Virus record (IMG/VR): IMGVR_UViG_3300033072_000420 | Span: 4,961-68,960 of that record | Source of the DNA: a virus | Lineage: Duplodnaviria; Caudoviricetes | Length of the DNA: 64,000 bases | Reading direction: 5' to 3' (one strand) | Shown here: one piece after another, positions 34,047 through 63,898 of the stretch | Position numbering within the stretch: the first letter of the stretch is position 1 | How the letters are laid out: each line of letters starts with the position of its first letter | Made by a program: the position numbers and the translations under genes | The notes under the pieces: model-generated | Databases searched by the model: none | The model's input: only the letters and a program-made list of their open reading frames with translations | What the model was told of the DNA's origin: nothing

Positions 34047-35360
34047 TCAGGAATAGCGTTTACGCAACCACGGACGCCGGATATTGACCGTGGCGGAGCC
34101 TGCAGCATCAAACGCCAAATTCATGTACCAGCCCCATTGATTGACAGTTGTGAAAGCCGGAAGCGTGAATTTCGGAGAACGAAGAACGTTGGTATACGCA
34201 GTCGTTGGGCCTGGTCCATTAGAGGTCGAGCAATACATATCTCCCGGCTGATAGTTGACGCCGTCAAGCTGCAGCAACTCCCGCACTGCTGGTGGGCAGA
34301 AATGACTTGACCCTGCAGCGACCGTGTACTCAACACCGCATTGATGGATGTCGCCTGCAACAGGAGCGCCATAGTTACTCCCGTTGCCCGGGGGGTTCAA
34401 ATAGAAGAACACTTGCGCCGTGCCTGCGGCGCTTGCCGTCAGCGATAGTACAAGGTCATTGCCGTAAGTGCCTGCTACAGTTGAGGCCACCACCGCCACG
34501 TTAGCCGATCCATCAACTTCCCAGTTCGCAGGAACAGTTCCTGTAGTGTTGGTGCCCTTGGTGCCACCCGTAGCAGTCAAGAAAAATGGGTTGACTAGTA
34601 GATTGGTGCCGCCGTTTGCGCCCACATCCCAGGCCGCCTGCAATTGCTGGCCAAAGGCCGGAACCAGGGGACTCATGAACGATGCGAAGTCCACGCCAAG
34701 GTTGTAAGCACCTAGAGCAAGGGTGTGAGTTCCATCCGACGAATATCCGGTCTTGAACGCAGGAACGGTCTGTGTCGAGTCAAGCAAGACTGACGGCGCG
34801 TCGTAATACAGTACCCCAGGCACCACCTCCGCCAGCTCACGACAGAGCTGGTTGTACTGCATGACGTAGCCGAGCTTCGTACCAGTCATTCCGACCTGAC
34901 CCATTTCGCCCATCAGGATCACGGTCATGCCCGCAACGGCGGCCTGGATAGCAGCAGCGCGGATGCCAATGCTTGCCGTGGGCATGCCCACACCAGTCCA
35001 AATCTGTTGCGCGGTGCAGCCGTACGCAATGTCATTGACACAGCCCCAGATGACCAAAAACTTTGCCCTGGATGCGATTGCTGCAGCAAGATACTGCAAA
35101 TATTGATCCGAGCGATAACCGCTGACGCCGCCGTCATAGATCACGTTGATACGCTGGCCCAACTGTGCAGCAGCATGTGTCATAAAGTGGACACTGTTTT
35201 TCCAGACGCCCGGGTCGCCCACGGAAGCAGGAACATCAATATGAAACTGCGCCATTCGACTGTCACCAATCAGCGCAATAGCATTTTGATATTTCGCCAT
35301 CCCCGCATGCTGCACAGCATGTTGAGTCAAATCGAATGGTGCTGGAATTATTGGTAACAC
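34047..35360 (-). CDS. SGNH/GDSL esterase with MLP-QHA leader and C-terminal CBM-like domain
   Basis: IGDS, GVSG, GCVND, DGTH blocks; AGAGGAG then GTG. Confidence 0.8.
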   Translation of the reverse strand: MLPIIPAPFDLTQHAVQHAGMAKYQNAIALIGDSRMAQFHIDVPASVGDPGVWKNSVHFMTHAAAQLGQRINVIYDGGVSGYRSDQYLQYLAAAIASRAKFLVIWGCVNDIAYGCTAQQIWTGVGMPTASIGIRAAAIQAAVAGMTVILMGEMGQVGMTGTKLGYVMQYNQLCRELAEVVPGVLYYDAPSVLLDSTQTVPAFKTGYSSDGTHTLALGAYNLGVDFASFMSPLVPAFGQQLQAAWDVGANGGTNLLVNPFFLTATGGTKGTNTTGTVPANWEVDGSANVAVVASTVAGTYGNDLVLSLTASAAGTAQVFFYLNPPGNGSNYGAPVAGDIHQCGVEYTVAAGSSHFCPPAVRELLQLDGVNYQPGDMYCSTSNGPGPTTAYTNVLRSPKFTLPAFTTVNQWGWYMNLAFDAAGSATVNIRRPWLRKRYS

Positions 35361-35390
35361 GGCTTCTCCTCTAGGGAATTTGAACTGATT

Positions 35391-35591
35391 TCACTCGGTG
35401 TCTCGCAGACGGGCCTTGGCCTGCAGGACACTAGCATGGGCCATCTTCTTGAAGATCTCGGTGATGTACCCGTAGTTGTCGGCCTTACCCGCCTTTCGGG
35501 CAGCTTCCTTGGCAGCTTCCCACTTCTTCTCAAGGGCGGGAACAGACCCCTTACCTTCCTTGCTCAGCTTCTTTATGAACGGGACGGGCAT
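35391..35591 (-). CDS. Small basic protein ending in an LQAKARL motif
   Basis: GAAGGA upstream of ATG 35591 (MPVPFIKK...). Confidence 0.72.
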   Translation of the reverse strand: MPVPFIKKLSKEGKGSVPALEKKWEAAKEAARKAGKADNYGYITEIFKKMAHASVLQAKARLRDTE

Positions 35592-35613
35592 GTGAGTTCC
35601 TTCGTTGCGTGCA

Positions 35614-36258: not shown

Positions 36259-36266
36259 GGAGTCTC

Positions 36267-36902: not shown

Positions 36903-36919
36903 GATGTGGGCTTCTTTCT

Positions 36920-37764: not shown

Positions 37765-37791
37765 GCTTACTCCCCATAGCAATTGAGTTTG

Positions 37792-38725: not shown

Positions 38726-38734
38726 GTTCTTACC

Positions 38735-39955: not shown

Positions 39956-39957
39956 CT

Positions 39958-41495: not shown

Positions 41496-41542
41496 GCTGT
41501 TTCCTTATCGTTCGTTGCCTAGGCCACCCAAGACAAATTCAC

Positions 41543-43247: not shown

Positions 43248-46200
43248 TTAGTAGCCCTCGGAGAACCACCAGACGGTGGTCGTGTTGCCGCTAGCGTTGT
43301 AGAGTGCAACTCCGGTAAGCGACGGGGAGATCGCTACCGAAACTGCGTTCGTGGCGGTTGGTGTGATGCCAGCCGATATCACGGAAGTCGTGTACGACTT
43401 CGGGAAGGTAATGATCACGTTCCCGCCCGCGTTCACAGTTGCCGAACCGCTATACCGGATGCGACCGTCGTGGTAGCGAATCTGGTTGTAGTTCGTGTTG
43501 ACTGCGAAAGCTGACCGTTGGCCCAGAGGTGCGTGAGTTGCGCTCCACCAGCAAGTGGATCCAGTTCCGATGGTGGGTTCCCCAGATCCGTTATCCAGAT
43601 CGTATGAGAGGAAGTTGTTGTTCACTGCAGGATAAGCGTCAGCTTCAGTCCCGCGAGAGTACAGACCACCGTTACCAAGAGCCATCTGCAGGAACAGGTT
43701 TGTCCGGCATGTGTAGTTCACATTGGAAGAACCACACAGGATCATGCCGTAGGCTGTAGACCCAGGCATCCGGAACAGACGCATCCCGTAGAAGAGGTTC
43801 GTGTCGATGTCGTACAGAACCACCGCCGGATTGTAGTAGTTACCAGACACCTCATGGATTCGGTTCATGGAGAAATTACCGTGAACCAAGCCTGAACCAG
43901 CGTTACCGTCGCAGATCAGGAATGCCCCCGTTGAGGAAGTTGTCTGGTAGCCGTTAATCCAGATGTCGTTCTCCTGGCAATCGCTGTACTCGGCGACAGT
44001 GTTGCTGCAACCGAAGTAGACGATAGTTGTGGAGAAGTTGGAACCTGCCAACTTGTAGAACGACTCCGAGCATGAATAGATCGAGAGACCTGTTCCCGCC
44101 ATGTTGGTGCCCTGCCCCTGCAGGTACACCTCTTGGAAGTTACAGCCTCGCAGGGTGGAGGTACCCGACGGATTGATCATGAACATGGTTCCGCCTGCAG
44201 CACCACCCCATTTGACAATGGTTGGTGCGCGTCGGGCGCTTGTGTCATGTTCACCACCCCGGCTCACACCAAGGATGCTAACCCCAATCGTTTGGATCAA
44301 GATGGTGCTAGAGATCACTGTGGTTCCAGACGGGAATCGCAAGATCCCCCCGTTCTGGGTACCGAGCCAGTTGATAGCTGCCTGGATAGCTGTAGTGTCG
44401 TCGGTTGTACCGTCGAACTTCGCGCCGAACACCTTCGCCGAGATCTCACCCTGGAATGCATCGTAGCACCAGCGTCCTCCGTCGCTTGCGACGATGATGG
44501 TGCCCCCGTTGTCAGCCGACGAGGTGTCACTTGCCACGTACACGTAGACCCCACCACCGCCATCACCTGCAGCATAGTAACCAGCGACAACGGCGGAAGA
44601 ATAGGTTGAGCGGGAAACTGAGCGCAGGGCAGAGATCGAGCTCACAGTAGCCAACGAGCCAGAACCACCGCCACCACCTGACGGAGTCGACCACCCGAAA
44701 CTGGAGCCATTCCAGCCCAGGTAGGTCCCCGATGTTGTCGGTGCGGTGATGTAGCCAGTCGTGCCGGTCGCGGTTTGATACACGACCGTGTTGGTGTTGC
44801 CCCCAGAAAGAGAAACAGCCGATGCGATGACTGTGGTACTGGTGTTGGTGGAGAACGCAACGATTTCAACCACGTCGTTGAGGTTCGTGCTGGTCGCCAG
44901 AACAATCGAGCTTCCACTGGTTGCAGTGTAGTCCGATGCTGGAATCAAGAACCCGTTGACGAACACCTGAACGTAGCCAACTGTGTAAGACGCGATGAAC
45001 GTAGTCTGACCAGCAGTGGCTGTGTAGGTAGAACGGATATAGGTAGCAGTCGATCCACCACCGCCGCCACTGGCACTCAGGGTTCCGCCTGAGTAGGTGA
45101 GGCCGGAGCCGATGGTCACGGCTGAGAAGCCACCAGCACCGTTACCGGCAAGCAGGGTGCTTCCTGATGTAGGGGGTGCGTAGTCAGTTCCAGAAGTAGC
45201 GGCCACCAGTGCACCACCCGAACCCTTCAGGATACCTGAAGCAGTCGTGGAAAGTGTAATCGCCGGGGTCGTCGTAGCGTTGATTACCGAACCGGCGAAT
45301 CCGTTAGCCGAAGAGACCGACACCGAGGTTACGGAGCCGGAACCAGAGCCACCAGTGGACGAGAGGGTGCCACCAGAGAAGCTGAGCCCGCTTCCAACAG
45401 TGACGTTTACGAAACCACCCGAACCGTTGTTTGCCAGCAGTTGAGAAGAAGTCCCCGAAGGTGCAGCAGCATAATCAGTTCCAGCTGTGGCTGCAACAAA
45501 GCCCGTCCCGTTGGCCTTGACCATACCTGACAACGAAGTGCCGATACGGAGGGTCGGAGTTGTCGAGGCAGTAGTCACAGTGCCGGTCAGGCCGTTTGCA
45601 TTGGTGAACGCAAACGAAGTGACGGTGCCACTGCCTGAGCTTGGGACATAGCCGAGCGCATTCGTAACGTCCAGGCTAGTGAGCACCACAGTGCCAGAAC
45701 GTGAGTTGAACGAGGAGACTCCAGAGCCACCGGCATTTCCCCACACGGGTGTGAAGCCGGGACCAGCAGAAGTCAGCACCTGACCTGCAGTTCCTGCAGA
45801 ACCATTCAGGAGCAGAGGAGCTGACCCGGTGCTCAAGTTGAGGGAGCCAGCCACGCTCAGGCTGGTCAACGTCCCGACTGACGTGATTGCGGGTTGCGCA
45901 GCGGCTGTCACTGAAGCGGCAGTACCAGTTGTGTTCTGGTTCAGAATTGGGATGTCCATCGCTTGGATGTAGGACATCGTCACGTTGGTGCCGTTTCCTC
46001 GCAGGTACTGACTCATGGTCACTGCACCTGCCAAGCTGTTCATCGATGCCTGAAGAGTGGTTTGCCCAGTTCCGCCGTTGGCGACAGGCAGGACACCCAC
46101 GACACCAGAGCTCAGAGGCAGTGCAGTCGCGTTGGTCAGAACCAAGGCAGAAGGGGTTCCTAGGTTTGGAGTCACCAGGGTCGGCGAGTTCGCGTGAACA

Positions 46201-50098: not shown

Positions 50099-53000
50099 TC
50101 ACTTGTACTGAGACTGAGATGCGAGAACCGTGTAGGTTGCACTGGCTGTCTTGATGATGGTCAAGTTGTAGACGTCGATTCCGCTCGCGTTACCGGCCGT
50201 CGGCGCAGTGCCACCCAGCCACTTCGGGGTCACAGCACTACCGTCAATCTGGTAAGCAGACTGATAGTAAGCAGTGGCCCCCTGAGTAGCCATGATTGCG
50301 ACTGTGACCGAATCCCCGATGCTCATCGCAGTGTTCAGGGAGGTCCCAGAAGAGAATGCAATGTTGATCGTCCAGTTGTTGGCCGCGTTGGTCGTGAAGT
50401 ACTGAACCGCACCATTGTTGACGTACACTGTCTGGGTTGCCGACGGTGCTGCCGCAATGATGTTGGTCAGTTCCTTCGCGTTCTTCAGGGCGATAGCGAA
50501 GGTCGAAGTGCTGCCACTAAAGGTCTGGGTGTCAGTCCATGTGTTCTGGGCCGAAACCGAGACTGCGCTACCCCAGGACGGGACCGCGCCAGCACCATTC
50601 GACATCAGGAACTGACCCGCCGTTCCGGTGAGACCCGAGGCCCCCAGCCCCAGTGCACCAGCACCGTCTATCTTCATCACCTGACCCACAGCGGTGTTGA
50701 ATACTATGGCCCCCTTAGTTCCTGATCCTGAGGTCGCGGCGGTTATCTGCACGTTACCAGCGGCACCTGAGCCTGAGGCGATACCGCTAGATAAGTTGAG
50801 CGTTCCTCCGTTGCCAGAGCCAGAAGCGTTGCCCGCACTGAGGGAGACATTGCCTGCATTGCTAGTGCCCGCCCCGTTGCCACCGTAAAGGGTGACGTTA
50901 CCACCAGCCACGTTCGTACCCGTGTTGTTGTACCCGGCACTTATGGAGACATCGCCACCAGCAGTCGAGGACGAACCGTTCAGGGTCATGATTGGTGCAT
51001 AGACCGTAGCAGAAGCTCCGGAATAGATGTTGACACTGCCACCAGATGTGACAGTGTTGCCCGTTCCACCTGTGATCGTGACCGTACCTGCAGCACCAGT
51101 TGACGAACCGTTGGAAGCACCCGCGTTGATGTTGATGCTACCACCAGCGCCTGTCGTACTCCCACCGGACGCTGCAGTGATGTTTATGGTGCCACCTTGA
51201 CCAGCACTGTCACCCTGACCTGAAGATATGTTGACGCCACCTCCGTTTGCCCCAGAACCAGACCCGGCTGCACCACCGCTGAAAGTTACTGCACCACCCG
51301 ATGAAGAGGAACCTCCATTAACGGATAGCGAGGCCCCTCCGTTGAGTACTCCCCCGGTTGTTGTACCAGACCCACTGAACAGCTGGATGCTCGACCCGAC
51401 TCCGGTAGCTGTCGTTCCATCCGTGACCGCGTTGGTCCCCTGGATGGTAACCAGCGAGCCAGAAGCGACAGTCCCACTCGAGTTCAGGGCTGCGAGTCCA
51501 GGCTGCAACAGGATACCGCCTCGGCGGCGAGCCTGCGCAACAGTCGCGAAAGCAGTCCATGCCGAGGTAGCGCCACCACCAAGGATAGCGACGTACCCGT
51601 TGCCTCCCGTGTTGCTGGCCGCACCCGTGCCTGTACCCGACTTGAGCTGCAAGGCGTATCCAGTACCACCCGCGTTATCCGGAGTAGTTACAGTGCCCCC
51701 AGACGTGTTGGCGTTGACATTGAATGCGTAGGGCAACGTGAGAGTCGAACCGACACCACTGAAGCTGAAGGTGTTGGAAGGACCAGCAGCTCCAGCGTTA
51801 GGGGACAGATAGAAGGTGCCGCTCTGTTGGATCTGCGGAGCCGATGTCGAGTACGTGCCACTGAAGGTGAGAGACGAGCCGTCGGTCGTGATGCCCGACG
51901 TGAAGCCAGTCGTACCCGGGGCTGTCTGGTAGAGGATCTGACCAGTGGTGCCCCCAGAAACTGCACTCGCAACTCCGATCGCAAGGGTGCTATAGGCGAA
52001 GAACTCGACCAGATCACCAGCCGAAGCTGCAGTCGTGAGCACCACAGTCGCACCGTCCGTTGCCGTGTAGTCAGCAGGGGCCAGCAACCCTGAGTTGACA
52101 AACACCTGGAGATAGCCAACCGTGTACGAGACGTTGAACGAAGACACGGTCGTGGCCACTGTGACAGTGGTTCGCGTGTACGACACTGTTGATCCCGTGG
52201 TCGACTGCCAACTCACGTTCGTGCCATCCGTTGACAAGAACTTCCCAGCGTTGCCTGTCTGTGTAGGAAGGACCGCGTTAGCAGCCCCAGCTTGAGTGGT
52301 TGCACCCGTACCTCCGCTGGCGAGCGGGAGAGTACCAGTCACGCCAGTAGTCAACGGAAGACCAGTGGCATTCGTCAGGGTGACTGCAGACGGAGTTCCC
52401 AGGTTAGGAGTCACCAGCGAAGGAGACGTGGCGCGCACAACGGAACCTGAGCCCGTCGATGTCGTCACGCCAGTACCACCAGAGGCCACTGGCAAAGTGC
52501 CAGTAGTCAGTGTAGTAGCGGAGGTCGCATAAAGGGCACCACCCGAAGTGAATCCAGTCAAGCCAGTTCCACCGTATGCAGTGTCGATGGTCGTGGCGTT
52601 CCACGTTCCGGAGGTGTATGCCCCGTTCCCATTGATGGCTGCAGTTATGGCCCCACTACCGTTCATGATAGCGAGAACCAGATCGGTGTCTGCCGCCGAT
52701 CCCCGCTGCATCATCAAACCACCCAAGGTCGAGTTCGTGACGATCTGAGGAACGACTGAGTTGTTGTACGCTGACTGCAGGGTAGCTGTTGATATGCCGG
52801 CGGAAGCCCCGATTGATTCACCGAATTTTGATACGGCCAGGAATCGGGCGTTGTTCGTGTCGTTCAGCGACGTGCAACCCTTGGTGACACACAGAATCCC
52901 GATCAGCACTGCGTTCTGTACCAAGTTGGGGAACACTGTGAATGCTTCACCCGCAGCGCCTCCGATCGCGGCTGCCAGATTCTGGTAGATTGCTTGGCCG

Positions 53001-56000
53001 TACTGAACTGCGAACGCACCGTTGAGGCCAACGTAGATCCGCTGGCATGTGGCTTGGTTCGTTGACCCACTGATGGCCGTGATCGTACCAGCGACATCGT
53101 AGTTCAGGGGATCGATGTTCGTGTAGAGCGTTGCGTTGCCGCCAGTCTGAGTGCGATACAGGAACGACACCGGATTCAGCGCAGCCAGGGGGACTTGGCT
53201 GGGGCTGTATGTACTGGACGTGAAGTTGAGGCCGAAGCTCGACAGATAACCCGCCGTCGTGTTGAACGTGAGGTTCGCCCCGTTGGCGTAGGTTGAGATC
53301 CCGCTGTTGATGATGCGGATCGGTTGCAGGAATTCTCGGACCTGAGCCAGTGACGAGTAAGCCACATCGGGCATCGGGCTCAGTACGGTGATGACCGTCT
53401 TGTTGGCGTGAGCGACAAACCCCAAGAAGATCATCTGACGACGCTGCTGAGGCGTCGGGAACGTGTTCAGGTACTGAAGAGTTCCGGTGTTATCGAGGAG
53501 AACGTAAGTCTGTGTGGCTGTAGTCAAAAACGCGGGCGTGATGTTTGTCGCGCCAGCGAAGTTCACTTGGGTTATGGTGGGTGAAGCCGGGTTCGTTTCG
53601 TTGTTGACGATGATCCCGGTAGTTGCACCCACGTTGAAGGTTGTGCCGCCGACAGTTCCGGTTATGGCCGCACCAGTCAACACGCCGGTTGACAATGCGT
53701 TGGTGGCATACGAAGAGGCAGAAGCCGGAGCGTAGTCGACCCCAGACACGGCTGCTGTGAATGCAGATGTGCCGTTCCCCTTCACCAATCCGGTGATCGT
53801 AGTGGCTCCAGTCCCACCGTGAGCAACGTCGACTGTCGATCCGTTCCAGGTACCGGACGTGATGGTTCCGACAGTGGTGAGGCTAGAACTCACAACGTTT
53901 GCTGCAAGTGTAGTGCCCGTCAGTGTACCAGCGGCGGCTGTCACTGTCCCGGAGCCACCCAGCGCGATCGCGGTTCCATTGACAGTCACCGAGCTGTTAG
54001 TGAGTGCGCTGTTAGGGATGTTGCTGAATGTGTTGGAGCCACCGCTGATGGCTTTGTTCGTCAGGGTCTGAGCTGATGAAATGTCAGCTGCCTGAACACC
54101 ATTGAGCTTGATGACCCCAGTCCCCTTGGTGCTGAGATTCAGGTCGACATTGGTGTCGCCACCAGCAGACGAAATCGTCGGGCCATTGAGTGTGGCGGAA
54201 TTGGTGAAGGTCAGCCAGTTGACAGCAGAAGCGGTGCTACTGAAGACGGTGACTGCTTTGGCACTAGCGTCGTTGATCTGGCCGATCTGCGGTGTAGTGA
54301 TTACCGGACTTGTAGCCAGCACCACACTACCAGACCCTGTTGTGGCAGCCGCGCTGATGGCGGTTCCGTTACCCTGAAGGATGCCCGAGACCGTGGTCGA
54401 CAGAGTGATGGCCGGTGTTGAGCTAGCAGTCGCAACAGTTCCAGCGAAGCCATTAGCAGACACTACGCTGACAGTAGTGACTGTGCCGCCTGAACCCGTA
54501 GCAGTCAGAGTGCCACCCGTGAAGCTCAATCCAGAGCCGACTGTCACGTTTGAGAAACCACCGGAGCCATTTCCGTAAAGGATGGACGAACCCGAAGTTG
54601 CCGGGGCGTAATCAGTCCCGGCCACTGCAGCCGTCATCGCGGCCGTACCGTTACCTTTCACCAACCCGGTGAGTGTCGTTGCTCCGGTTCCGCCATTGGC
54701 GACAGCCACCACCCCTGTGACGTTCGCTGCAGTTCCAGTCGTGTTCTGGTTCAAGGTAGGAACGTCGCCGACCTGGATGGCCGACATCGTCACGTTGGTT
54801 CCGTTACCGCGAAGGAACGAGCCCGCGGTCACAGCACCTGCGAGCGCGTTGATAGCGCCCTGTTGAGTCGTAGCACCAGTCCCGCCGTTGGCAATCGGCA
54901 AGGCCGATCCCGAGTACGAGATAGCGATAGTGCCTGAAGAAGTGACCGGGGAGTTCGACACCGACAGGAACGCGGGGACCGAAACACCGACGCTCGTGAC
55001 TCCATTCACAGGGGCGGGCGACCATGTCGGGGTGGCTCCGGGACCTGCGGAAGTCAGGATTTGACCGGCAGTTCCGACCGAACCATTCAGGGAAATGGTT
55101 GTGGTGGCACCCAGACTCAAGGATGTGCTGACAGTCGGGCTGCTGAGGGTGAGGCCCGAGATAGTCGTTGCAGTGGCGCCGAGGGCTACACTGGTCGTAC
55201 CAAGCGTTACCGAGCTGTTCGTAAGACCAGAATTGGGGATCGTGGAGACAGCAGTGACAGCTGATGTACCGTTTCCTACCAGGAAACCGCTCAATGTGGT
55301 GGCACCTGTCCCACCGTTAGCGACGGCGACAACGCCAGTCACGTTGGCAGCAGTGCCTGTCGTGTTCTGGTTAAGAGTGGGGACGTCACTGGCCTGGATC
55401 GCTGACATCGTCACGTTGGTGCCGTTACCACGTAGGAAAGTTCCGGCTGTTACTGCACCAGCGAGCGAATTGATCGCAGCCTGGAGACTGGTCTGCCCCG
55501 TACCACCGCTGGTGACCGGAAGAGCAGTTCCAGACAACGAAAGTGTCAGTGTGCCGGTCGTAGTGATGGGAGAGTTTGTCACTGTCAGGAACGCGGGTGC
55601 CGACAATCCGACGTAGGACACAGTTCCAGTTCCACCACCGCCCCCGGAGACAGTCGTCCAGGAGGGGGCAACTCCAGGTCCACCTGAGGTCAGCACCTGA
55701 CCAGCTGTCCCAACGGAACCGTTCAGGGTTATGGGTGCGGTGCCAGAAAGCGTCAGGGCAGAGAAAGTGCCCGGAGCCGGTGTGGTGGCTCCGATCGTAA
55801 CTCCGTTGATGGATCCTCCGGTCAGAGCCACGTTGGTCGGGTTTGCCATCTCCTTGTTGGCCAAGAGTGTGACGTTCCCGCCCGGGTCCTTGAAGTACAT
55901 CTTCCCGTCAGCAGCATTGACTGCGACTTCCACACCGTTGGCGCTTGTGGTCAGATTCGTTGCTGCGGGGATCGCACTGGCTGTCGTGCTTCCGTACAGG

Positions 56001-56029
56001 AGGATCGAGGAGTATTTTGGAGCGGACAT
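50099..56029 (-). CDS. Very long tail fibre (1976 aa)
   Basis: Mtd_N-like N-domain paralogous to 43248 gene; many GGTG/GNGT modules; Gly-rich beta-helix-like region; C-domain PKWLGGTAPTAGNASGIDVY. Confidence 0.85.
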   Translation of the reverse strand: MSAPKYSSILLYGSTTASAIPAATNLTTSANGVEVAVNAADGKMYFKDPGGNVTLLANKEMANPTNVALTGGSINGVTIGATTPAPGTFSALTLSGTAPITLNGSVGTAGQVLTSGGPGVAPSWTTVSGGGGGTGTVSYVGLSAPAFLTVTNSPITTTGTLTLSLSGTALPVTSGGTGQTSLQAAINSLAGAVTAGTFLRGNGTNVTMSAIQASDVPTLNQNTTGTAANVTGVVAVANGGTGATTLSGFLVGNGTSAVTAVSTIPNSGLTNSSVTLGTTSVALGATATTISGLTLSSPTVSTSLSLGATTTISLNGSVGTAGQILTSAGPGATPTWSPAPVNGVTSVGVSVPAFLSVSNSPVTSSGTIAISYSGSALPIANGGTGATTQQGAINALAGAVTAGSFLRGNGTNVTMSAIQVGDVPTLNQNTTGTAANVTGVVAVANGGTGATTLTGLVKGNGTAAMTAAVAGTDYAPATSGSSILYGNGSGGFSNVTVGSGLSFTGGTLTATGSGGTVTTVSVVSANGFAGTVATASSTPAITLSTTVSGILQGNGTAISAAATTGSGSVVLATSPVITTPQIGQINDASAKAVTVFSSTASAVNWLTFTNSATLNGPTISSAGGDTNVDLNLSTKGTGVIKLNGVQAADISSAQTLTNKAISGGSNTFSNIPNSALTNSSVTVNGTAIALGGSGTVTAAAGTLTGTTLAANVVSSSLTTVGTITSGTWNGSTVDVAHGGTGATTITGLVKGNGTSAFTAAVSGVDYAPASASSYATNALSTGVLTGAAITGTVGGTTFNVGATTGIIVNNETNPASPTITQVNFAGATNITPAFLTTATQTYVLLDNTGTLQYLNTFPTPQQRRQMIFLGFVAHANKTVITVLSPMPDVAYSSLAQVREFLQPIRIINSGISTYANGANLTFNTTAGYLSSFGLNFTSSTYSPSQVPLAALNPVSFLYRTQTGGNATLYTNIDPLNYDVAGTITAISGSTNQATCQRIYVGLNGAFAVQYGQAIYQNLAAAIGGAAGEAFTVFPNLVQNAVLIGILCVTKGCTSLNDTNNARFLAVSKFGESIGASAGISTATLQSAYNNSVVPQIVTNSTLGGLMMQRGSAADTDLVLAIMNGSGAITAAINGNGAYTSGTWNATTIDTAYGGTGLTGFTSGGALYATSATTLTTGTLPVASGGTGVTTSTGSGSVVRATSPSLVTPNLGTPSAVTLTNATGLPLTTGVTGTLPLASGGTGATTQAGAANAVLPTQTGNAGKFLSTDGTNVSWQSTTGSTVSYTRTTVTVATTVSSFNVSYTVGYLQVFVNSGLLAPADYTATDGATVVLTTAASAGDLVEFFAYSTLAIGVASAVSGGTTGQILYQTAPGTTGFTSGITTDGSSLTFSGTYSTSAPQIQQSGTFYLSPNAGAAGPSNTFSFSGVGSTLTLPYAFNVNANTSGGTVTTPDNAGGTGYALQLKSGTGTGAASNTGGNGYVAILGGGATSAWTAFATVAQARRRGGILLQPGLAALNSSGTVASGSLVTIQGTNAVTDGTTATGVGSSIQLFSGSGTTTGGVLNGGASLSVNGGSSSSGGAVTFSGGAAGSGSGANGGGVNISSGQGDSAGQGGTINITAASGGSTTGAGGSININAGASNGSSTGAAGTVTITGGTGNTVTSGGSVNIYSGASATVYAPIMTLNGSSSTAGGDVSISAGYNNTGTNVAGGNVTLYGGNGAGTSNAGNVSLSAGNASGSGNGGTLNLSSGIASGSGAAGNVQITAATSGSGTKGAIVFNTAVGQVMKIDGAGALGLGASGLTGTAGQFLMSNGAGAVPSWGSAVSVSAQNTWTDTQTFSGSTSTFAIALKNAKELTNIIAAAPSATQTVYVNNGAVQYFTTNAANNWTINIAFSSGTSLNTAMSIGDSVTVAIMATQGATAYYQSAYQIDGSAVTPKWLGGTAPTAGNASGIDVYNLTIIKTASATYTVLASQSQYK

Positions 56030-56041: not shown

Positions 56042-57178
56042 TTAGAAAGACCCACCATGAATGCCGTTGGTTATGGCACCCGTTGAAGGGTTGACCGTTA
56101 TGCCAGTGCTGAAGCCCAGTCCTTGATATCCACTAGAGGATGCGCCTAGCGCAACAAAGAAGTCCGCGTCGGTGGTCGTCAGCACACTGTTCACGTTCGT
56201 AGCGTTGGTAACTGCAATGCTACCGATGACTGCAGCCACCTGAGCGCCTGTGGCTGCAGTGAACGCTGTCGTCCCATTCCCGTAGGCCAAACCACTCAGC
56301 GTCGTAGCCCCGGTGCCACCGCTACTAACAGGCAGGGCAGTACCTGACAGTGATATGGCGATTGTGCCCGACGAAGTGACAGGAGAGTTTGCCACTGACA
56401 GGAATGAAGGGACAGATACCCCGACGCTAGTCACAGTTCCACCGCTGCCCGAAGTGACTGTTGTCCACGTCGGGGCAGCACCCGGCCCTCCGGAAGTCAG
56501 CACTTGACCGACTGTACCAGAGCTTCCACTGAGCGTCAGAGCCGTCGTAAAATTAGCACTGGCAAGCGTGAGTCCGGCGATGGTCGTCTTGGTGTCGCCA
56601 AGAGAGACTGATGTTGAACCCAACGTGAACGCGCTGTACTGCAGACCCGCATTGGGGATGTTGCTGGTCGTCAACGCGATTCCACCAGCGGTGTTGACGA
56701 CCGTGATGCCACCACCCCCAGAGATGGTGCCGAGGGTGAATCCAGTGCCGTTCCCTATGAGCAGCTGTCCGTCTGTTGGGATTGTTATAGATCCCGTACC
56801 CCCAGAGGACACCGGCAGTGCAGTGCCCGAGAGTGTGACGTTCAGCACACCCGCGCTTGTAATCGGGCTGTTGGCGACAGACAGGAAAGACGGAACTGTC
56901 ATTCCGACCGAGGTAACGCTCCCAGTCCCAGTGACCGAAGTCCACGATGGTGGGAGTCCGGGGCCAGCCGAAGTCAAGACTTGACCAGCGGTCCCGACTG
57001 AAGGCGAGCTGCCTGATGACAGAGGGCCCTGTATTTGAGTGGTTCCTGAAAGCGTACCCTGATTGAGAGTCTTTCCAGTCAGCGTTGGGATGTACGTGAG
57101 GGGTACGAGGGCCGTCGAATCGAGTGGGGCAACCCCGTTAGGGATACCCACATCCGAGGCGGCTACGATTCTGGTCAT
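56042..57178 (-). CDS. Fibre-like protein built from the same modules
   Basis: GTAGQVLTSAGPG..P.W, SVG.SVPSFLSVANSP.TSSG, LPVSSGGTG. Confidence 0.75.
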   Translation of the reverse strand: MTRIVAASDVGIPNGVAPLDSTALVPLTYIPTLTGKTLNQGTLSGTTQIQGPLSSGSSPSVGTAGQVLTSAGPGLPPSWTSVTGTGSVTSVGMTVPSFLSVANSPITSAGVLNVTLSGTALPVSSGGTGSITIPTDGQLLIGNGTGFTLGTISGGGGITVVNTAGGIALTTSNIPNAGLQYSAFTLGSTSVSLGDTKTTIAGLTLASANFTTALTLSGSSGTVGQVLTSGGPGAAPTWTTVTSGSGGTVTSVGVSVPSFLSVANSPVTSSGTIAISLSGTALPVSSGGTGATTLSGLAYGNGTTAFTAATGAQVAAVIGSIAVTNATNVNSVLTTTDADFFVALGASSSGYQGLGFSTGITVNPSTGAITNGIHGGSF

Positions 57179-57193: not shown

Positions 57194-58528
57194 TCAAGCC
57201 CGAGCAGGCGCCGAAACGTCACCGAGCCGCATGATCAATCCGTTGGGAACTTGGTTTGCGAGTATGGCAGCAGATCCAGCAGCCATCGGCTCTTGGCTCA
57301 GATCTGAGTAGAACACAAGGGATGCAGGCGGCACGTCACCAGCGTAGAGCTTGCGAATCAGGTGGTCGCCCAGCGGCACCTTCCAGACCGCCATCTCAGA
57401 GAATTGGAAGCCTACAGGGATTTGAGCTACACCATCAGTACGACCTGCAAGCCCAAAATTATTGAGGTACTCTATTGGAACTCCCCCAGCCAAGTTCTCG
57501 ACGTTCACACCATCAATCCACATTGAATACGCGTCAGCAGCCTGATTGTATCGTAACACTAGTTCACGCATCACTCCGTCGGTACTGATGATGGAGTTTT
57601 GGGCTCCAGCCCCACCACCAACGGCTAAATTGTAGACATCCGTGGGATTCCTAACCCGTGTGATGCTGGACGGTCTTTGGAATGACAGGAACGCCGCACC
57701 TTTCAACGTATTGTCCCCCACAGTACCTATGCACTTGAATTTAGCACGCAGCGTGATTGAGCCAAAGTTTCCACACACTCCCATATTCAGGGGTGAGAAG
57801 GCGTTGCCAGTTATAGGAGCGATGTTGCTGTACTTCCACGCACCGAGACCAGTACGGACCCGGGGCTTCCGCATGGAGCCGTAGGTGAAGATCCCCAGAT
57901 CGATGGCGTCAAAGAAGTGCTGGTAGCCCGCATCGTTGGGATGCAGGCCGTCACTGCTCCATGTAGTACCTGCTATGAATCCACCAGATCCGTTGTCGAA
58001 CTCGGACATGTGATCGATGCGATGGTAACCCAGTTGGTCAAGTGCCTGATTTAGAGCAAGCGCTCCCTGGTACTGAGCAGCCGAGTACCCATTCCACATA
58101 TAGGCACCACGCAGGATCGGAACTGCGTTGATGCGCTCGCAGAAGCTGATCAGCTTGAGGTTTGCCTGATATATGGAGGTCCAGTCACATCCATCGTTGA
58201 CCGGATGATTGCAGAGTATCACGTGAGTTGGGCGATGAGGTGCGACATCGGTCCAGAATCGGTTGGCCGAAGCAACGAAGCCGGTGCCGCTGATACTACG
58301 GTTGATGACCTTCCAGCCTGCACCCAAGGCCGTTGCGAGTCGACCAGCCCAGCTTGTCGAGGGGGATGCCCATCCATTTGCGGCCGAGGGGTCGCCAGAG
58401 TACGTGGACGCCCCAGACCCTGCTCCGTTGCTGGAGCCAAGAATCACGACCGTTCCAGTCGAGGCCATCTGCGCATGTTGTTGAAGGTGTTGGTCTGTGG
58501 AGAACGGTGGCGTAACTATTGGAAGCAT
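57194..58528 (-). CDS. SGNH esterase + ConA/LamG-like domain with MLP-QHA leader
   Basis: ILGSS, SISG, PVND, DGLHP blocks. Confidence 0.8.
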   Translation of the reverse strand: MLPIVTPPFSTDQHLQQHAQMASTGTVVILGSSNGAGSGASTYSGDPSAANGWASPSTSWAGRLATALGAGWKVINRSISGTGFVASANRFWTDVAPHRPTHVILCNHPVNDGCDWTSIYQANLKLISFCERINAVPILRGAYMWNGYSAAQYQGALALNQALDQLGYHRIDHMSEFDNGSGGFIAGTTWSSDGLHPNDAGYQHFFDAIDLGIFTYGSMRKPRVRTGLGAWKYSNIAPITGNAFSPLNMGVCGNFGSITLRAKFKCIGTVGDNTLKGAAFLSFQRPSSITRVRNPTDVYNLAVGGGAGAQNSIISTDGVMRELVLRYNQAADAYSMWIDGVNVENLAGGVPIEYLNNFGLAGRTDGVAQIPVGFQFSEMAVWKVPLGDHLIRKLYAGDVPPASLVFYSDLSQEPMAAGSAAILANQVPNGLIMRLGDVSAPARA

Positions 58529-58570: not shown

Positions 58571-59698
58571 TTAGCCGAGTGGTGTGAAGCTCATAGTGAT
58601 TGGTTTGTTTCCAGCCACCGTGAACGTATCCCCTGCTGCCGTTGACTGTGCCCAAAGCTCGCACGTAACCGCTTGAGCAGATGCACAATTCTGTACGAAT
58701 TCCAATGTGGCAAAGCCGGAAAACCCCCCGGTCGGTGCAGTCAACAAGAAGAAGTACGGCTGACTCAGAGTTGTGCCATCAGTTGTTTTGAACTTGGGGG
58801 CAAAGATGATTGAGTGTCCCCCGATCACGTTCACCCAGGCCGTCAGTCTACACAGAACATTGCCGTTGCGCGGCCCGACGTTTACAGGGCAGACGGCAGT
58901 TGAGTCCACAAGTGCAGCTGACGTTCCAATAGTAGAACTCGTTATAGATAACAGGCTGACAGCAGTCGGCTTAGTAGGGATGTCCATAGCCGCGAACAAG
59001 GCGGCCGGTGCCTGACTCGCGAACACTTCCTCAGAAGATGCCCATGTGCGGCCAATGCTCACGATGTCATCTGTAGAGCCGTTGAGTTGATAGAATTCAA
59101 ACCCCGGCCACGTACCTGCTATTGAACCGATGGCGGCGTTCGAAATGGTTTGCACAGAGCCATCAGGCAAGCGCAGGAATGCTCGGGAGTTCGATATGTC
59201 GAGGGCGACTTCTGCGGTGTAGACGACGCCGACGGAGAGTGGTGTTTTGAAAGCCCCGGCGGCATAATTTGTGACAGGACCATCCTGTACCAGAATAGTG
59301 TCCGCCGACCAGCCCCACCTATTGATTGTGAAGTGCATGCCAGTCGGTGGGACATGCGCCGGACCCGCGATGTTAGCAGACCAAGGAGTTATGTTGATGG
59401 CACCGTTCAACCCACCAGAGCCTGCTGTAAAAGAAAACTCCGCACCCATTCGGGTAACCGGACCCGGTAACTGCCACGCGCTGTACCAGGCCCTTTGACC
59501 TGTCCCCGCGCTTGAAGACAAAAAGTTCCCGGATGCGACGACAGGCGCTCCGTTGCTACGGAAATATAGAGGGATACCCGCGAATGTTTTTGTAGGAGCA
59601 ACACCTCCGGACGGCTTGACATAGTCAAAACGCCCCATGCTGGCATGCTGAGCAGCATGCTGCACCACGTCAAAAGGAGCTTGAATAGTTGGGAGCAT
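58571..59698 (-). CDS. Lectin-like beta-sandwich protein with MLP-QHA leader
   Basis: Leader MLPTIQAPFDVVQHAAQHASMG; beta-rich; no SGNH blocks. Confidence 0.7.
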   Translation of the reverse strand: MLPTIQAPFDVVQHAAQHASMGRFDYVKPSGGVAPTKTFAGIPLYFRSNGAPVVASGNFLSSSAGTGQRAWYSAWQLPGPVTRMGAEFSFTAGSGGLNGAINITPWSANIAGPAHVPPTGMHFTINRWGWSADTILVQDGPVTNYAAGAFKTPLSVGVVYTAEVALDISNSRAFLRLPDGSVQTISNAAIGSIAGTWPGFEFYQLNGSTDDIVSIGRTWASSEEVFASQAPAALFAAMDIPTKPTAVSLLSITSSTIGTSAALVDSTAVCPVNVGPRNGNVLCRLTAWVNVIGGHSIIFAPKFKTTDGTTLSQPYFFLLTAPTGGFSGFATLEFVQNCASAQAVTCELWAQSTAAGDTFTVAGNKPITMSFTPLG

Positions 59699-59713: not shown

Positions 59714-60160
59714 TCACACGACCACGAAGGTTCCGATCAAGTTGCCTTGCATATCCTCAAGGGTCATCGTGTTGCTAGGGGGTCCGGAGAATGGGGTGAC
59801 AACAACCCAGACCGCGCTAGGATTGGTGTCGATGGGGGTGCCGTCAGGCATCTTGAATCCCGAACGGAAGACCGTAGCGTTCGCGGCCACAGTCTGTGCT
59901 GTCTGGTTCTCGAGAACGATCTTCACATTCCCGAGCGGTAGATAGCTACAGACGTTTTCGTAACTCAGGGCAGGCTTCCAGAAACCGTCGGTGTCCCGGT
60001 AGTACATACCGGGTTCTTGGGCACCTCGTGGGCGTGTCAGCACACAGAGGTTGACATTGAACGGAACCTGCAGGAAGTCAGAGACCCAAGGAATGTCCGA
60101 ACGTGTGCAGTTGGTGCCGTAACAGAGCTGGGCCTGTATATAGAAATTTGGATTTGTCAT
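59714..60160 (-). CDS. Hypothetical (probable virion) protein
   Basis: Packed ORF between OMP and leader-bearing gene. Confidence 0.72.
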   Translation of the reverse strand: MTNPNFYIQAQLCYGTNCTRSDIPWVSDFLQVPFNVNLCVLTRPRGAQEPGMYYRDTDGFWKPALSYENVCSYLPLGNVKIVLENQTAQTVAANATVFRSGFKMPDGTPIDTNPSAVWVVVTPFSGPPSNTMTLEDMQGNLIGTFVVV

Positions 60161-60178
60161 TTCTTGGATCTCGGGTTG

Positions 60179-60835: not shown

Positions 60836-60846
60836 TTTATTTACTT

Positions 60847-61473
60847 TCAGTACCAGCCGGCCTGATAGCCGCTTGGTGGAGTATATGAAAAAGCAGACGC
60901 GCCGAAGTTTGCAGTTACTTGCTGAGGATTATTTTGAGAACCAATCATAGGATAGTAAGTAACTCCAGATGTCAAAGTAGATGATGGGGATGTATATGCA
61001 AGAGAATTGTTTACGTAATATGCAACGATTCCTGCATTCAGATCAACCGCAACACCTACCAAGCCACCAGAAAGATAGTAAGGTGAGGCATTTACGTATC
61101 CTCCATTGTGATAAACACGACCCTGGCCCTGTCCATTGATTAGGTTTGTAAATCCCACACCACTCCCAGAGCCTGGGAATGGGTATGTCAGAGGTTCTGA
61201 AGATGAACCGACTCCAACAACAATATCCGGGTTATTGGTGCTCTGAACAGTTGTCATGGAAAGTTCAAAATAATATTTTCCAGTTGATTTTCCAATATTT
61301 GCACGAACATATGAAGCTGCTGTCGATGATGTCGAAAGAGTCAAATTCCCATTGCTGAGATTGATACTAGAACTCTTATCAGATGGATTCCAAGTGGCAT
61401 AAGAAATTGGTTTTTTCACAAAAAGACCAAAACCTCGGCCAGAGGCTGCCCCGAAAGTAGATAGTAGTGGCAT
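60847..61473 (-). CDS. SPRY/ConA-like adhesin, low GC
   Basis: TWNPSDKSS.I.LSNGNLT, KSTGKYYFE, GVAVDL..G, YPMIG, NFG..AF SPRY pattern; N-terminal MPLLSTFGAASGRGFG. Confidence 0.78.
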   Translation of the reverse strand: MPLLSTFGAASGRGFGLFVKKPISYATWNPSDKSSSINLSNGNLTLSTSSTAASYVRANIGKSTGKYYFELSMTTVQSTNNPDIVVGVGSSSEPLTYPFPGSGSGVGFTNLINGQGQGRVYHNGGYVNASPYYLSGGLVGVAVDLNAGIVAYYVNNSLAYTSPSSTLTSGVTYYPMIGSQNNPQQVTANFGASAFSYTPPSGYQAGWY

Positions 61474-61505
61474 TCTTTAACTCGGTTGTGCATGGATTGT
61501 GGAAT

Positions 61506-61537
61506 GAAGCGGCTCCCGTTGATTGGGAGCCGGCTTT
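61506..61537 (-). terminator. Hairpin after the 786-aa gene (possible terminator)
   Basis: CGGCTCCC-7nt-GGGAGCCG stem, extendable past a bulge; weak U-tract on the - strand. Confidence 0.45.
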
Positions 61538-63898
61538 TCACCTATCGTTTATGATGATGGCACCACCGACGTGCAAGGCATGACCGTTGGCTTGAGAGCC
61601 GCTAGCATTTGCCTGAGCACATCTCACGTAGTGCATCGAGCCCGGCCCGAACAAACTACCCCGGGTGTAGATGTGATAGTTCCCACTGACATCCAGAGCT
61701 AGAGTTCGATCTCGGTCGCTGTAGAAGTCGGTGAGCTTGGTACCCGGATTACCCGACAGAATCCATGCCACTCGACGGCCTGTGCAGAAGACCCCAGCCC
61801 AATCGTTCAGCGTGTCAGTAGGACGACCCAACAGATTCGATCGGCTGGCTTCAGCCGGGAGCCAGCTCCCGTTGTAGGTCAGCTGCTGATACGGCACGAG
61901 ATCATAGTCAAAGGTCAGGGCAACCAAGGCAGCGATCTTCAGAGTACCGCTAGTGACCATGAGTTCGTAGTTGTCTCGACCATCCGGGGCTGCCGAAGGC
62001 GTCGCAAACTCCGTGGGGGTGTAGATCGGCACAAACCACTCATTAGCAAAGGGTGGCACGCTAATGTTGATGGTCTTCTGAACTGATCCGTTGAGCGAAA
62101 CCGTGAAGGTACATGCGCCGTCAGAGACATCGCGATAGTGGATCAGGGCAAACCCAACTGGGCAGACTCCGGAAAGCTGAGCTCGTTGACCCGTTGTCAA
62201 GGTCAGAAGATCCTCACTAGCACCTACCAGACTGGACCAGCGCCGTGCGAAGGATGCTGATCCCCAAGGGTGTGCACCCAATGTACCCTTGTTAGGGGAG
62301 TTGTTGAGTGTGCAGAACTCCAGTTTCGGGAGTATGACAAAGGCGTCTGCCGGGGTCTTGACATCTGTCACAACCCGGATAGGGGGCATAGGTTTGGCCT
62401 CTGCGGGGCGATTCGGAATCGCGTTGAAGGCTGTCGGAGGAGTGACTTCTATAACCGAGACGTTCGTGATTGTGAAGTTCGCAGCGGCTCCTTGGGACCA
62501 GGCCAGGATTTGATAGCTGGACCCACCGCTTGCAGTGAACTGAACTGTCTGCGTTCCCGGAGTCGATATGTTCAAGGTCTGCGACGCGCCATCCCAGGAA
62601 TACCCTTTGGTCACACCTATCTGGAATTGACCCGATGCAACCGCAGTGACATTAAGGGACAGGGTAACTATCGACCCGGCTGTGAAGGCACCCATCTCGT
62701 AGATAGTCCCGAGTCCGGCAGCGCTGGCTACGACGTTGAGCGCGCCCCCAATGTTTGAGATAGTCCCGCCAGCGTAGCTAGCCCAACCGGCAGTTCCGGC
62801 CGTGGAGAACGAACCGTTGCTGACGCGTTGAACCCCTGACCCGAGTGGGTTGACGCCAACACTGAAGACTGAGCGCACAGCCCGAGCCCATGCTTCGTGG
62901 CCGTTAGCCGGGAGAAGACTGGAAGGGCCAGAAGGGGTTCCGCTCGCTTGGTGGATCGCATCTGCGTAGATCCCGACACCACCCGCGCGGAGATAAGCCT
63001 CAAACACGTATGCTGCAGTATCGGCCAACTCAACTCCGTAGAGGTCAGCGACTCGCATCACCTCAGGGCCGTCAACGTAGAGGCTAGCGCCAGACATGGT
63101 TGAGTAATCTGTGCTAGGTCCCTGCGGGTTGTCGGTCACCATAATGACTTCGACTCCAGCTTGACGCAGCTTCCGAGCCAAAGGTTCAATGGTTTCGAGT
63201 CGGTAGTCACCGCCGTTGGCCAGACACCCGATGACGACAAGATCGACACCATCGAAGAGCGTTGACCTTCCGTAAGGCGGAGACACCAACGTAGAGAGGC
63301 CACCAGCGGCCGAGGGCGCACCAGACTGAGCGTAACCAGATGCCGTGTGATACGACGACAACCCAAGCTGAGCCAACTGATATTGATTGGGTGACGCACC
63401 GACACCCGTGTACTTGGTGGTGATCGTGGTCGGAACCTTGTATTTGTCAACAGTACCGGAGCCGAACACCATCCCAGGCCAATCAGTAGATGCGCCACCA
63501 GATTGCGTGAGCGACGAACCCATGATCACCACACTGATCGATTGACCGGCCAGGACCTTGGCCATCGTACGGGGGATGCGGCAGGCGGGCACGACTGGTG
63601 TGATCTGCTTCAAGTCAGTGATGGTGCTGGATGTGCACACAGCACGAGCCACCGGAACCCAGCCACGATGACCGAGGCGGGGCAGGCAACGCAGAACGTT
63701 GCTGAACAGCTCGACACCGACATACCAAGTACCGGCGGCGGGCATGATGATAGAGCCGCCCGAGAAATTCAGGCCGCCCACAGAGAATGGCGAAACGGTG
63801 ACGGTCTTCCCGGATGCGCTGCAGATCGACATCCCGAGAGATGCGTGATGCTGCGCGTGTTGATCTACCGAGAACGACGGCGTTATTGTAGGTAGCAT
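61538..63898 (-). CDS. SGNH esterase + CBM-like domains with MLP-QHA leader
   Basis: IMGSS, CLANGG, ADAIH blocks; RVSNGSF...GW CBM4/9-like segment; GAGAGGA RBS. Confidence 0.8.
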   Translation of the reverse strand: MLPTITPSFSVDQHAQHHASLGMSICSASGKTVTVSPFSVGGLNFSGGSIIMPAAGTWYVGVELFSNVLRCLPRLGHRGWVPVARAVCTSSTITDLKQITPVVPACRIPRTMAKVLAGQSISVVIMGSSLTQSGGASTDWPGMVFGSGTVDKYKVPTTITTKYTGVGASPNQYQLAQLGLSSYHTASGYAQSGAPSAAGGLSTLVSPPYGRSTLFDGVDLVVIGCLANGGDYRLETIEPLARKLRQAGVEVIMVTDNPQGPSTDYSTMSGASLYVDGPEVMRVADLYGVELADTAAYVFEAYLRAGGVGIYADAIHQASGTPSGPSSLLPANGHEAWARAVRSVFSVGVNPLGSGVQRVSNGSFSTAGTAGWASYAGGTISNIGGALNVVASAAGLGTIYEMGAFTAGSIVTLSLNVTAVASGQFQIGVTKGYSWDGASQTLNISTPGTQTVQFTASGGSSYQILAWSQGAAANFTITNVSVIEVTPPTAFNAIPNRPAEAKPMPPIRVVTDVKTPADAFVILPKLEFCTLNNSPNKGTLGAHPWGSASFARRWSSLVGASEDLLTLTTGQRAQLSGVCPVGFALIHYRDVSDGACTFTVSLNGSVQKTINISVPPFANEWFVPIYTPTEFATPSAAPDGRDNYELMVTSGTLKIAALVALTFDYDLVPYQQLTYNGSWLPAEASRSNLLGRPTDTLNDWAGVFCTGRRVAWILSGNPGTKLTDFYSDRDRTLALDVSGNYHIYTRGSLFGPGSMHYVRCAQANASGSQANGHALHVGGAIIINDR

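Follow-up and report, generated by a model that had tools for sequence, protein, structure and literature searches.

A 22-residue N-terminal peptide shared by three SGNH esterases and a lectin-like protein of an uncultured phage: a candidate docking peptide

In the phage record IMGVR_UViG_3300033072_000420 four proteins of dissimilar sequence begin with versions of one 22-residue peptide, and the question raised by this locus is what such a peptide, here called the tag, might be for. The window analysed is a stretch of 64,000 nucleotides, bases 4961-68960 of a 68,960-bp IMG/VR contig, and feature coordinates are given as window positions. The most plausible answer, to which a probability of about 0.6 can be assigned, is that the tag is a flexible peptide by which secondary receptor-binding or receptor-modifying proteins dock, at their N-termini, on the tail-fibre/baseplate apparatus. 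Docking itself and its partner are inferred from comparison and analogy, as are oligomeric state, metal binding and the substrate of the enzymes; this reading is the best supported of those weighed.

Four copies of one peptide

The pattern MLPxxxxxFxxxQHxxxHA opens four proteins encoded on the minus strand (437, 444, 375 and 786 amino acids). M1, L2, P3, F9, Q13, H14, H18 and A19 are identical in all four copies, which are the following.

35295..35360, minus strand: tag copy 1, MLPIIPAPFDLTQHAVQHAGMA, GTG start of the 437-residue protein gene, 56.8 bits in the tag profile
58463..58528, minus strand: tag copy 2, MLPIVTPPFSTDQHLQQHAQMA, ATG start of the 444-residue protein gene, found by the tag profile and the pattern scan
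59633..59698, minus strand: tag copy 3, MLPTIQAPFDVVQHAAQHASMG, ATG start of the 375-residue protein gene, 60.5 bits in the tag profile
63833..63898, minus strand: tag copy 4, MLPTITPSFSVDQHAQHHASLG, ATG start of the 786-residue protein gene, 58.7 bits in the tag profile

Each copy is located at the first start codon of its open reading frame (ORF), and a ribosome-binding site of the GGAG/GAGG/AGGA type lies 6-9 nucleotides 5' of every tagged gene start. A 24-position profile of the tag, run over the 68,960-bp contig, found four sites with 57-60 bits (E 1.7e-17 to 2.4e-16) and no fifth copy, the next-best match having an E of 0.1; a regular-expression scan of the six frames returned the identical four sites. 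The four copies and their invariant residues, which an earlier note had picked out from the sequence alone, were therefore recovered by both scans, and their occurrence is far beyond chance. In the surroundings of the tagged genes, neither promoter nor terminator matches exceeded the shuffled expectation.

The copies are only 52-68% identical at the nucleotide level, their longest common exact run is at most 11 bases, and at identical residues the proportion of synonymous codon differences ranges from 5/12 to 12/13 per pair of copies. Because of these differing codons and short nucleotide runs, selection appears to act on the peptide, as the earlier note had proposed, and recent gene conversion is not needed to account for the likeness. 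The same figures bear on the idea that the tag is a recombination linker, i.e. a module boundary kept alike for the exchange of cassettes by homologous recombination. Tail-fibre genes are mosaic, and the tagged bodies have clearly travelled from phage to phage, a temperate siphovirus-like prophage, for instance, having an enzyme with 87% identity. However, the identity and the exact runs are too small for homologous recombination, and the use of mostly different codons for identical residues is the opposite of selection at the DNA level. This explanation is largely refuted and deserves hardly any credence.

The likeness ends abruptly, as first reported: past residue 22, BLASTP among the four tagged proteins gave no pair better than E 0.09. 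Inspection of the copies for Sec, Tat and lipoprotein signal features found no basic residue, Cys or RR and no hydrophobic run longer than about 5 residues. The statement that the tag is not a Sec signal is upheld, there being no n-region, h-region or lipobox.

The tagged proteins

The cargoes, as the tagged proteins will be called, had been described as three SGNH esterases and one lectin-like protein, an assignment with which Pfam, fold, invariant residues and Foldseek all agree.

34047..35360, minus strand: 437-residue SGNH esterase with a C-terminal beta-rich tail (PF13472, E 8.6e-11)
57194..58528, minus strand: 444-residue SGNH esterase (PF13472, E 1.2e-10)
58571..59698, minus strand: 375-residue lectin-like protein of two beta-sandwiches (AlphaFold and Foldseek)
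61538..63898, minus strand: 786-residue multidomain protein (AlphaFold pTM 0.80)

The 437- and 444-residue proteins match PF13472 with 43.1 and 42.7 bits, respectively, against a cut-off of 32.9, and both contain the GDS/GSS (block I Ser) and DGTH/DGLH (block V D-x-x-H) motifs. In addition, phrog_6102 ('lipase') covers residues 16-435 of the former, and homologues of the latter have a LamG-type (PF13385) C-terminal domain and varied N-termini. The 786-residue protein has no match in a Pfam scan and is predicted to be an SGNH esterase by its modelled fold and invariant catalytic residues. Its model comprises a beta domain (23-100), an SGNH alpha/beta domain (about 110-345), a sandwich resembling a carbohydrate-binding module (CBM; about 370-490) and a C-terminal beta region (about 518-786). 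Foldseek matched this model to the two-domain CEX acetyl-mannan esterase 6hfz and to the phage tail fibres 9lna, 9d84 and 9d81, and S129, N228, D313 and H316 are invariant across 31 homologues.

In the 375-residue protein no catalytic motif was recognised. The first sandwich of its model was matched by Foldseek to legume lectins (probability 1.00, TM about 0.5 when normalised to the lectin), to the receptor-binding domain of mycobacteriophage TM4 gp23 (9n6a) and to CBM2 of the phage J-1 Dit protein (5ly8). The model thus indicates a legume-lectin/ConA-like carbohydrate-binding fold. Homologues of this protein are 45-54% identical and have N-termini unlike the tag; a search of IMG/VR found no relatives.

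The cargoes had been called unrelated. This holds for their sequences, those of the three SGNH proteins not being alignable, but not for their structures, the SGNH fold being common to three of them. The claim that the tag is separate from the folded body fits the two models precisely: in the 375- and 786-residue proteins the predicted local confidence score (pLDDT) is below 50 at exactly residues 1-22, which form the sole long low-confidence N-terminal stretch, and the folded body begins at residue 23 (23-375 in the lectin-like protein).

Distribution of the tag and of its parts

Searched against 1.84 billion representative proteins, the tag profile found the proteins of this phage and one repetitive junk ORF (P0046). 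In the tagged proteins the tag belongs to no Pfam domain, so that the peptide noticed at the outset is neither part of a catalogued Pfam family nor present on other proteins in these searches. The profile has no match in phiRSL1. The single IMG/VR match to the exact degenerate DNA pattern of the tag was a chance match with stop codons and was rejected. When 24 kb of the window (megablast) and three cargoes (tblastn) were compared with 50,697 phage records, nothing was found except two weak Arthrobacter esterase matches. As far as the sequence databases show, the full tag would seem to be private to this phage.

The bodies of the cargoes are distributed more widely. Homologues are common in metagenomes and prophages, and their conservation begins at the residue right after the tag; a scan with the family of the 786-residue protein found three loci in genomes and three in metagenomes. 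What precedes the body varies, and may be a stretch of 10-20 residues, a DUF2793 or DUF7941 domain, or a collagen-like or fibre-repeat segment. One joint, '...AQKAAFQxSVSGY', is recurrent before cargo homologues. Others are variants of the second half of the tag: GHALEHAGMA in P0015, a protein 87% identical to the 444-residue esterase, AHALEHAGMG (P0045), AHALEHAAMG (P0007), WHSKQHSVMG (P0049) and SEHADEHASLG (in a protein of the L030 provirus). In P0081 the sequence AHADHVHPANQG follows DUF7941, with AHADHVHP at the position of the joint.

The closest relative of the whole tag is P0088 (Logan SRR31712301), MGGLVSPYTPQQHANDHQGLGM, which aligns without gaps to the tag of the 786-residue protein; Y replaces F9, while QHA, the second His and LGM are in register. 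An SGNH gene is located just upstream of P0088. Starts that resemble the first half of the tag and lack the second half are also found, namely MASIITPPYD (P0016) and MPMFTPSIDPSE (P0100). The part of the tag kept across lineages is H-x3-H (or H-x3-E), and the His pair emphasised by the earlier note is indeed the most widely conserved element. Because variants of the second half and starts like the first half occur separately in homologues, the tag is, by its sequence, composite: residues 1-12 would be a lineage-specific plug, and residues 13-22 an H-x3-H joint of wider distribution.

This distribution is relevant to a second explanation, in which the tag is an oligomerisation or metal-binding neck only, and a helix containing H-x3-H trimerises the enzymes, perhaps about a metal ion, without any docking; the proteins might then be free or held in some other way. 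The joint is the part conserved across lineages, AlphaFold places a helix (low confidence) at residues 13-20 of the 786-residue protein, and the AHADHVHP sequence of P0081 lies at the same place. HxH metal sites occur in phage fibres, of which AHADHVHP is reminiscent. A neck leaves unexplained, however, why M-L-P and F9 are invariant at the extreme N-terminus of all four proteins, and why the first half varies between lineages while the joint stays the same. As the sole function of the tag a neck is unlikely, although the neck and docking roles are not mutually exclusive.

Attachment context in other phages

The position of cargo homologues in other genomes favours a function in attachment. 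L030 is a complete 40.7-kb provirus in which a homologue of the 786-residue protein is encoded after the tape measure gene and four distal-tail genes, and before the endolysin and integrase genes. P0015 is encoded in the corresponding slot of a related prophage, which was found on five independent contigs. In siphoviruses this slot, between the distal-tail genes and the lysis genes, is that of the receptor-binding protein gene. Since cargo homologues carry other N-terminal modules and occupy a tail-fibre slot, an attachment role is the best reading of the N-terminus.

Some of these relatives have an additional adaptor domain of about 35 residues (..[IV]RD..T.K.LK...DG[TS]..EVV), which is present at L013 3648-3944, L017 5723-6163, L030 9911-10060 and P0007 1-45 and has no Pfam family. 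The L030 protein and P0007 start with this domain, in the form ME.GDKTI..RDA.T.KRLKLM.DGT.AEVV, followed by the H-x3-H joint and then by the cargo. In L013 and L017, the domain is instead the N-terminus of a separate protein (98 and 146 amino acids, respectively) encoded immediately upstream of the cargo gene, and the cargo's own short N-terminus ends in the H-x3-H joint. Physical contact between adaptor and cargo is suggested by this arrangement, because the adaptor is fused in some genomes and encoded by an adjacent separate gene in others.

The use of one peptide for several cargoes recurs, with a different peptide, on a contig from the European Nucleotide Archive (L004, 129-4229). Here, three adjacent cargo genes share the peptide MGAQNIVLT[AS]AQKAAGATEL.GIDSSGNIKDTPARVAAF, over about 43 residues between two of the proteins and about 14 with the third. 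They encode a 53%-identical homologue of the 375-residue protein, a protein with a weak SGNH match and a protein that is SGNH-like by motif only. The ...AAFxASVSGY ending of this peptide also recurs as the joint before many homologues of the 786-residue protein. Such repeated use is not general, since in three larger viral genomes with the family of the 786-residue protein the search for repeated N-termini found single copies only. A different kind of repeat was observed at L023 8660-9960 and L033 2182-3480, where one stretch of about 80 nucleotides recurs in front of both of two neighbouring genes. In frame it reads MVV[AT]GLQ[GR]ARAGLCA[VI]R, and it is probably a repeated regulatory DNA element and not a peptide.

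The late gene block

The contig represents 29% of a complete genome by CheckV estimate, the whole being put at roughly 230 kb. Its large terminase is 44-53% identical to those of phiRSL1 (Ralstonia), of BcepSauron, BcepSaruman and BCSR5 (Burkholderia) and of Motura (Achromobacter), all of which are jumbo myoviruses of 221-264 kb; on this sequence comparison the window comes from a phiRSL1/BcepSauron-like jumbo myovirus, and Burkholderiales are candidate hosts. The plus strand encodes the terminase, the portal, a lysozyme/peptidase tail protein, a baseplate wedge protein and a collar-fibre protein; baseplate proteins are encoded at 26085-29351.

The tagged genes belong to a late block on the minus strand, which in order of transcription starts with the 786-residue tagged protein, a 208-residue SPRY protein, a 218-residue beta-barrel-like protein, a 148-residue protein and the tagged proteins of 375 and 444 residues. 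There follow a 378-residue fibre-like protein, a 1976-residue fibre, proteins of 314, 328, 179 and 114 residues and a 1336-residue fibre. The block ends with proteins of 490, 388, 123 and 406 residues, a 300-residue arginase-family protein, a putative holin (for which no family match was found), an Rz-like spanin, the endolysin and the 437-residue tagged protein. Three of the four tagged genes thus lie among fibre genes, and the remaining one comes after the lysis genes, where this leftward block ends.

The position of this last gene, which closes the block downstream of the endolysin and spanin genes, would agree with a third explanation, in which the cargoes are soluble non-virion enzymes that are freed at lysis or act in the infected cell, while the tag binds a shared chaperone, regulator or envelope target. 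Possible tasks would be the destruction of receptors on debris and the modification of the envelope or of exopolysaccharide (EPS). A cargo gene also adjoins the lysis cassette in relatives, and an outer-membrane-barrel-like gene with a 40%-identical homologue in a lysis cassette is found among the tagged genes. On the other side, the tag has no charged n-region, hydrophobic core or Cys, tail-fibre genes commonly precede lysis genes, and cargo homologues are fused to recognisable fibre-type N-terminal modules. Taken together, a soluble function appears improbable.

A fourth explanation is that the tag is a capsid-targeting sequence or propeptide, which loads the enzymes into the head and is then cut by the prohead protease. 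The precedent is T4, in which IPI-III and Alt, otherwise unrelated proteins of one phage, have a short shared N-terminal leader, and jumbo phages package many proteins. In T4 the leader sends proteins into the head and terminates in a protease site that contains Glu (L/I-x-E). By contrast, Glu is absent from all four copies of the tag, which therefore contain no LxE/IxE or S/A/G-x-E cleavage motif. As carbohydrate esterases and a lectin with CBM-like domains, the cargoes have their substrates outside the cell; the tagged genes lie among fibre and lysis genes, not head genes; and the homologues occupy tail-fibre slots. Both cargoes and gene neighbourhood point to the tail, and loading into the head is very improbable.

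The tagged proteins are not the only ones in the window to combine a common N-terminus with divergent bodies. Comparison of the first 45 residues of all ORFs identified two more such sets, the pair of 1976 and 1336 residues and the trio of 490, 388 and 406 residues, so that in this phage a fixed anchor is combined with a variable body in three classes or more. Such a set of classes is what a multivalent receptor-binding apparatus would be expected to show. The trio (38735-43015, minus strand) has a common N-terminus of about 45 residues with the pattern M..S[IV]V..F...P..V.G[IV]P.S.GNG.FG...IGSGL.L.G.TL, and bodies that are largely divergent. The two large fibres have the common N-terminus MSAPKYSSILLYGSTTASAIPAATNL... 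and repeated internal modules; these modules recur in the 378- and 314-residue proteins, as well as in fibres encoded on L018, a metagenome contig of 220 kb.

Three further genes of the block were characterised.

60847-61473, minus strand: 208-residue SPRY-domain protein (PF00622, E 4.9e-07; phrog_10080), directly downstream of the 786-residue protein gene
60179-60835, minus strand: 218-residue protein with a signal peptide and outer-membrane-barrel-like sequence, among the tagged genes
37823-38725, minus strand: 300-residue arginase-family protein (PF00491, E 1.1e-49), after the last fibre-like gene and ahead of the lysis genes

The 218-residue protein matches neither a Pfam nor a PHROG family; its homologue is located at L012 2130-2801, in the holin-endolysin cassette of the P0015 prophage.

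A docking peptide and its candidate partners

If the tag is a docking peptide, its two parts might act as follows. Residues 1-12 (M-L-P-x5-F-x3) would be a plug for which one of the structural proteins of the phage has a recognition site, and residues 13-22 (Q-H-x3-H-A-x-[ML]-[AG]) a short joint, probably helical, with the two His on one face; in an oligomer the H-x3-H joint may form a metal site or an adaptor contact. Methionine aminopeptidase leaves the initiator Met in place when residue 2 is Leu. The initiator Met of the tag is therefore expected to be retained, and the invariant M-L-P would thus be the recognised free end. The tag would become ordered on its binding site in a fibre or baseplate complex and hold three enzymes of the O-acetyl-esterase type and one lectin-like binder at the periphery of the virion, where they might bind and de-O-acetylate surface polysaccharide during adsorption. 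One tag on four proteins implies that equivalent sites are repeated or that the proteins compete for a single one.

Four proteins of the late block were considered as partners.

43248..47258, minus strand: 1336-residue fibre or spike with a pectin-lyase-like beta-helix at 870-1060, candidate scaffold
50099..56029, minus strand: 1976-residue fibre, N-terminus and repeated modules in common with the 1336-residue fibre, candidate scaffold
56042..57178, minus strand: 378-residue fibre-like protein with two internal repeats, directly downstream of the 444-residue tagged protein gene, candidate scaffold
59714..60160, minus strand: 148-residue protein, directly upstream of the 375-residue tagged protein gene

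The first three are built of repeated modules and therefore would fit repeated equivalent sites. The 1336-residue protein belongs to PHROG tail fibre and EPS depolymerase families and has PDB matches to 7chu, 6tgf, 7z47 and 8vbx. The 378-residue protein has no PHROG, Pfam, PDB or Atlas match; a resemblance between VPSFLSV in its repeats and TPSFSV in tag copy 4 is weak and too short to weigh. The gene for the 148-residue protein is at the position of the adaptor protein in relatives. No similarity of this protein to the relatives' adaptors and no PDB or Atlas match was found, and the MPDGT that it has in common with the adaptor domain is not significant.

Several observations weigh against docking. 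Known branched systems usually pair each secondary receptor-binding protein (RBP) with its own peptide and its own site, whereas one tag on four proteins needs four equivalent sites or competition for one. No match to a T4gp10-like or other branching domain was found in the 1336-, 1976-, 378- and 148-residue proteins (Pfam, PHROGs and PDB sequences), and neither a profile search nor a comparison of shuffled scores with all late proteins found a homologue of the relatives' adaptor domain in the contig. Furthermore, none of the four cargoes is carried by a cultured phage among the 50,697 phage records, one tagged gene is located after the lysis genes, 22 kb from the other three, and about 70% of the genome lies outside the contig. 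Of the original proposal of an interchangeable docking tag, attachment remains the best reading, but the tag does not form one indivisible unit, because relatives with a longer N-terminus have its second half in common with it.

A more elaborate version of docking can be imagined, in which the tag is a two-part adaptor code. The H-x3-H joint would be a metal collar common to several lineages and the 12 residues before it a swappable plug; the enzymes sharing the plug would sit on repeated sites of the giant fibres or compete for one, and the fused or split adaptor would be the ancestral form. This is a speculative scheme and doubtful as a whole. If it were true and the enzymes competed for one site, virions with different enzyme sets would amount to bet-hedging in host range.

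Comparison with described systems

The earlier note had considered N-terminal anchors to be typically much larger than the tag. This view is out of date. Tailspikes of K1-5, K1E and SP6 are attached by docking peptides of 7 and 11 residues to the adaptor gp37, and KP34 gp57 has the peptide MALxxLV (PMC6872550); such peptides join a secondary RBP to a branching domain. In KP32, deletion of a 29-residue peptide of RBP2 (gp38) abolishes RBP2-dependent infection, and fusion of the KP32 peptide to the K1F endosialidase yields a phage infecting E. coli K1 (PMC13352976). Given that peptides of 7, 11 and 29 residues have been described, the last verified by deletion and fusion, the principle of the docking peptide is not new.

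The present case resembles KP32, KP34, K1-5 and SP6. In all of these a short peptide at the N-terminus gives way abruptly to an unrelated body with an enzymatic function, and the genes lie in a fibre or spike cluster; the peptide is specific to a group of phages and separable from the folded enzyme, and the bodies are exchanged horizontally. The free M-L-P end proposed to be recognised can be compared with Leu2, Asp3, Phe5 and Asn6, the modelled contacts of KP32 gp38 (PMC13352976). Members of this class are united by their role and not by their sequence, and on inspection MLPxxxxxFxxxQHxxxHA has no resemblance to MALxxLV, the comparison being with the published heptapeptide only. Compared with KP32 and K1-5, there are further differences. 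Those phages are podoviruses, whereas the present one belongs, on its terminase, to the phiRSL1 group of jumbo myoviruses. There, one peptide serves one site, whereas here one type of peptide is found on four proteins; the bodies are beta-helix depolymerases there, and SGNH esterases and a lectin here. Finally, the tag has two parts with the conserved H-x3-H joint, and the searches gave no T4gp10-like partner.

SGNH tail fibres are a frequent feature of prophages and have acetyl-esterase activity, the classic esterase spike being gp63.1 of G7C (PMC13123978). The latter, an O-antigen deacetylase of an E. coli phage mounted on gp66, is also an SGNH esterase that is attached to the virion by its N-terminus as a secondary RBP (cited in PMC6872550 and PMC13123978). 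However, the N-terminal region of gp63.1 is folded and positively charged according to PMC6872550, in contrast to the disordered 22-residue peptide described here. Comparison of the cargoes (tblastn) with the 50,697 phage records gave no G7C-like match.

The multi-tailspike complexes of jumbo phages of the CBA120/Vi01-like and PhiK64-1/PhiKp24 types are similar in that many different receptor-binding enzymes are carried on one myovirus baseplate, each with an N-terminal assembly region. In these systems, the assembly domains are folded, about 100-335 residues long and different in each spike (PMC8825819 and PMC7506556), whereas here a 22-residue peptide is repeated.

Implications

What is new here is the sequence of the peptide, its setting in a jumbo myovirus, its fourfold use, the types of body and the two-part anatomy, the principle itself being already known. 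If the tag docks, the principle of a conserved docking peptide would extend from the podoviruses of Klebsiella and E. coli to an uncultured phiRSL1-like jumbo myovirus, and one peptide would serve four different cargoes in one genome. Docking would also make the tag a portable handle of very small size (22 residues, disordered in isolation), with which esterases or lectins could be mounted on a virion. The occurrence of the H-x3-H joint in several lineages, beside a fused or split adaptor, provides a lead on how such peptides may contact their partners. Three esterase families and one lectin family, none of them seen in cultured phages, join the receptor-modifying proteins of phages.

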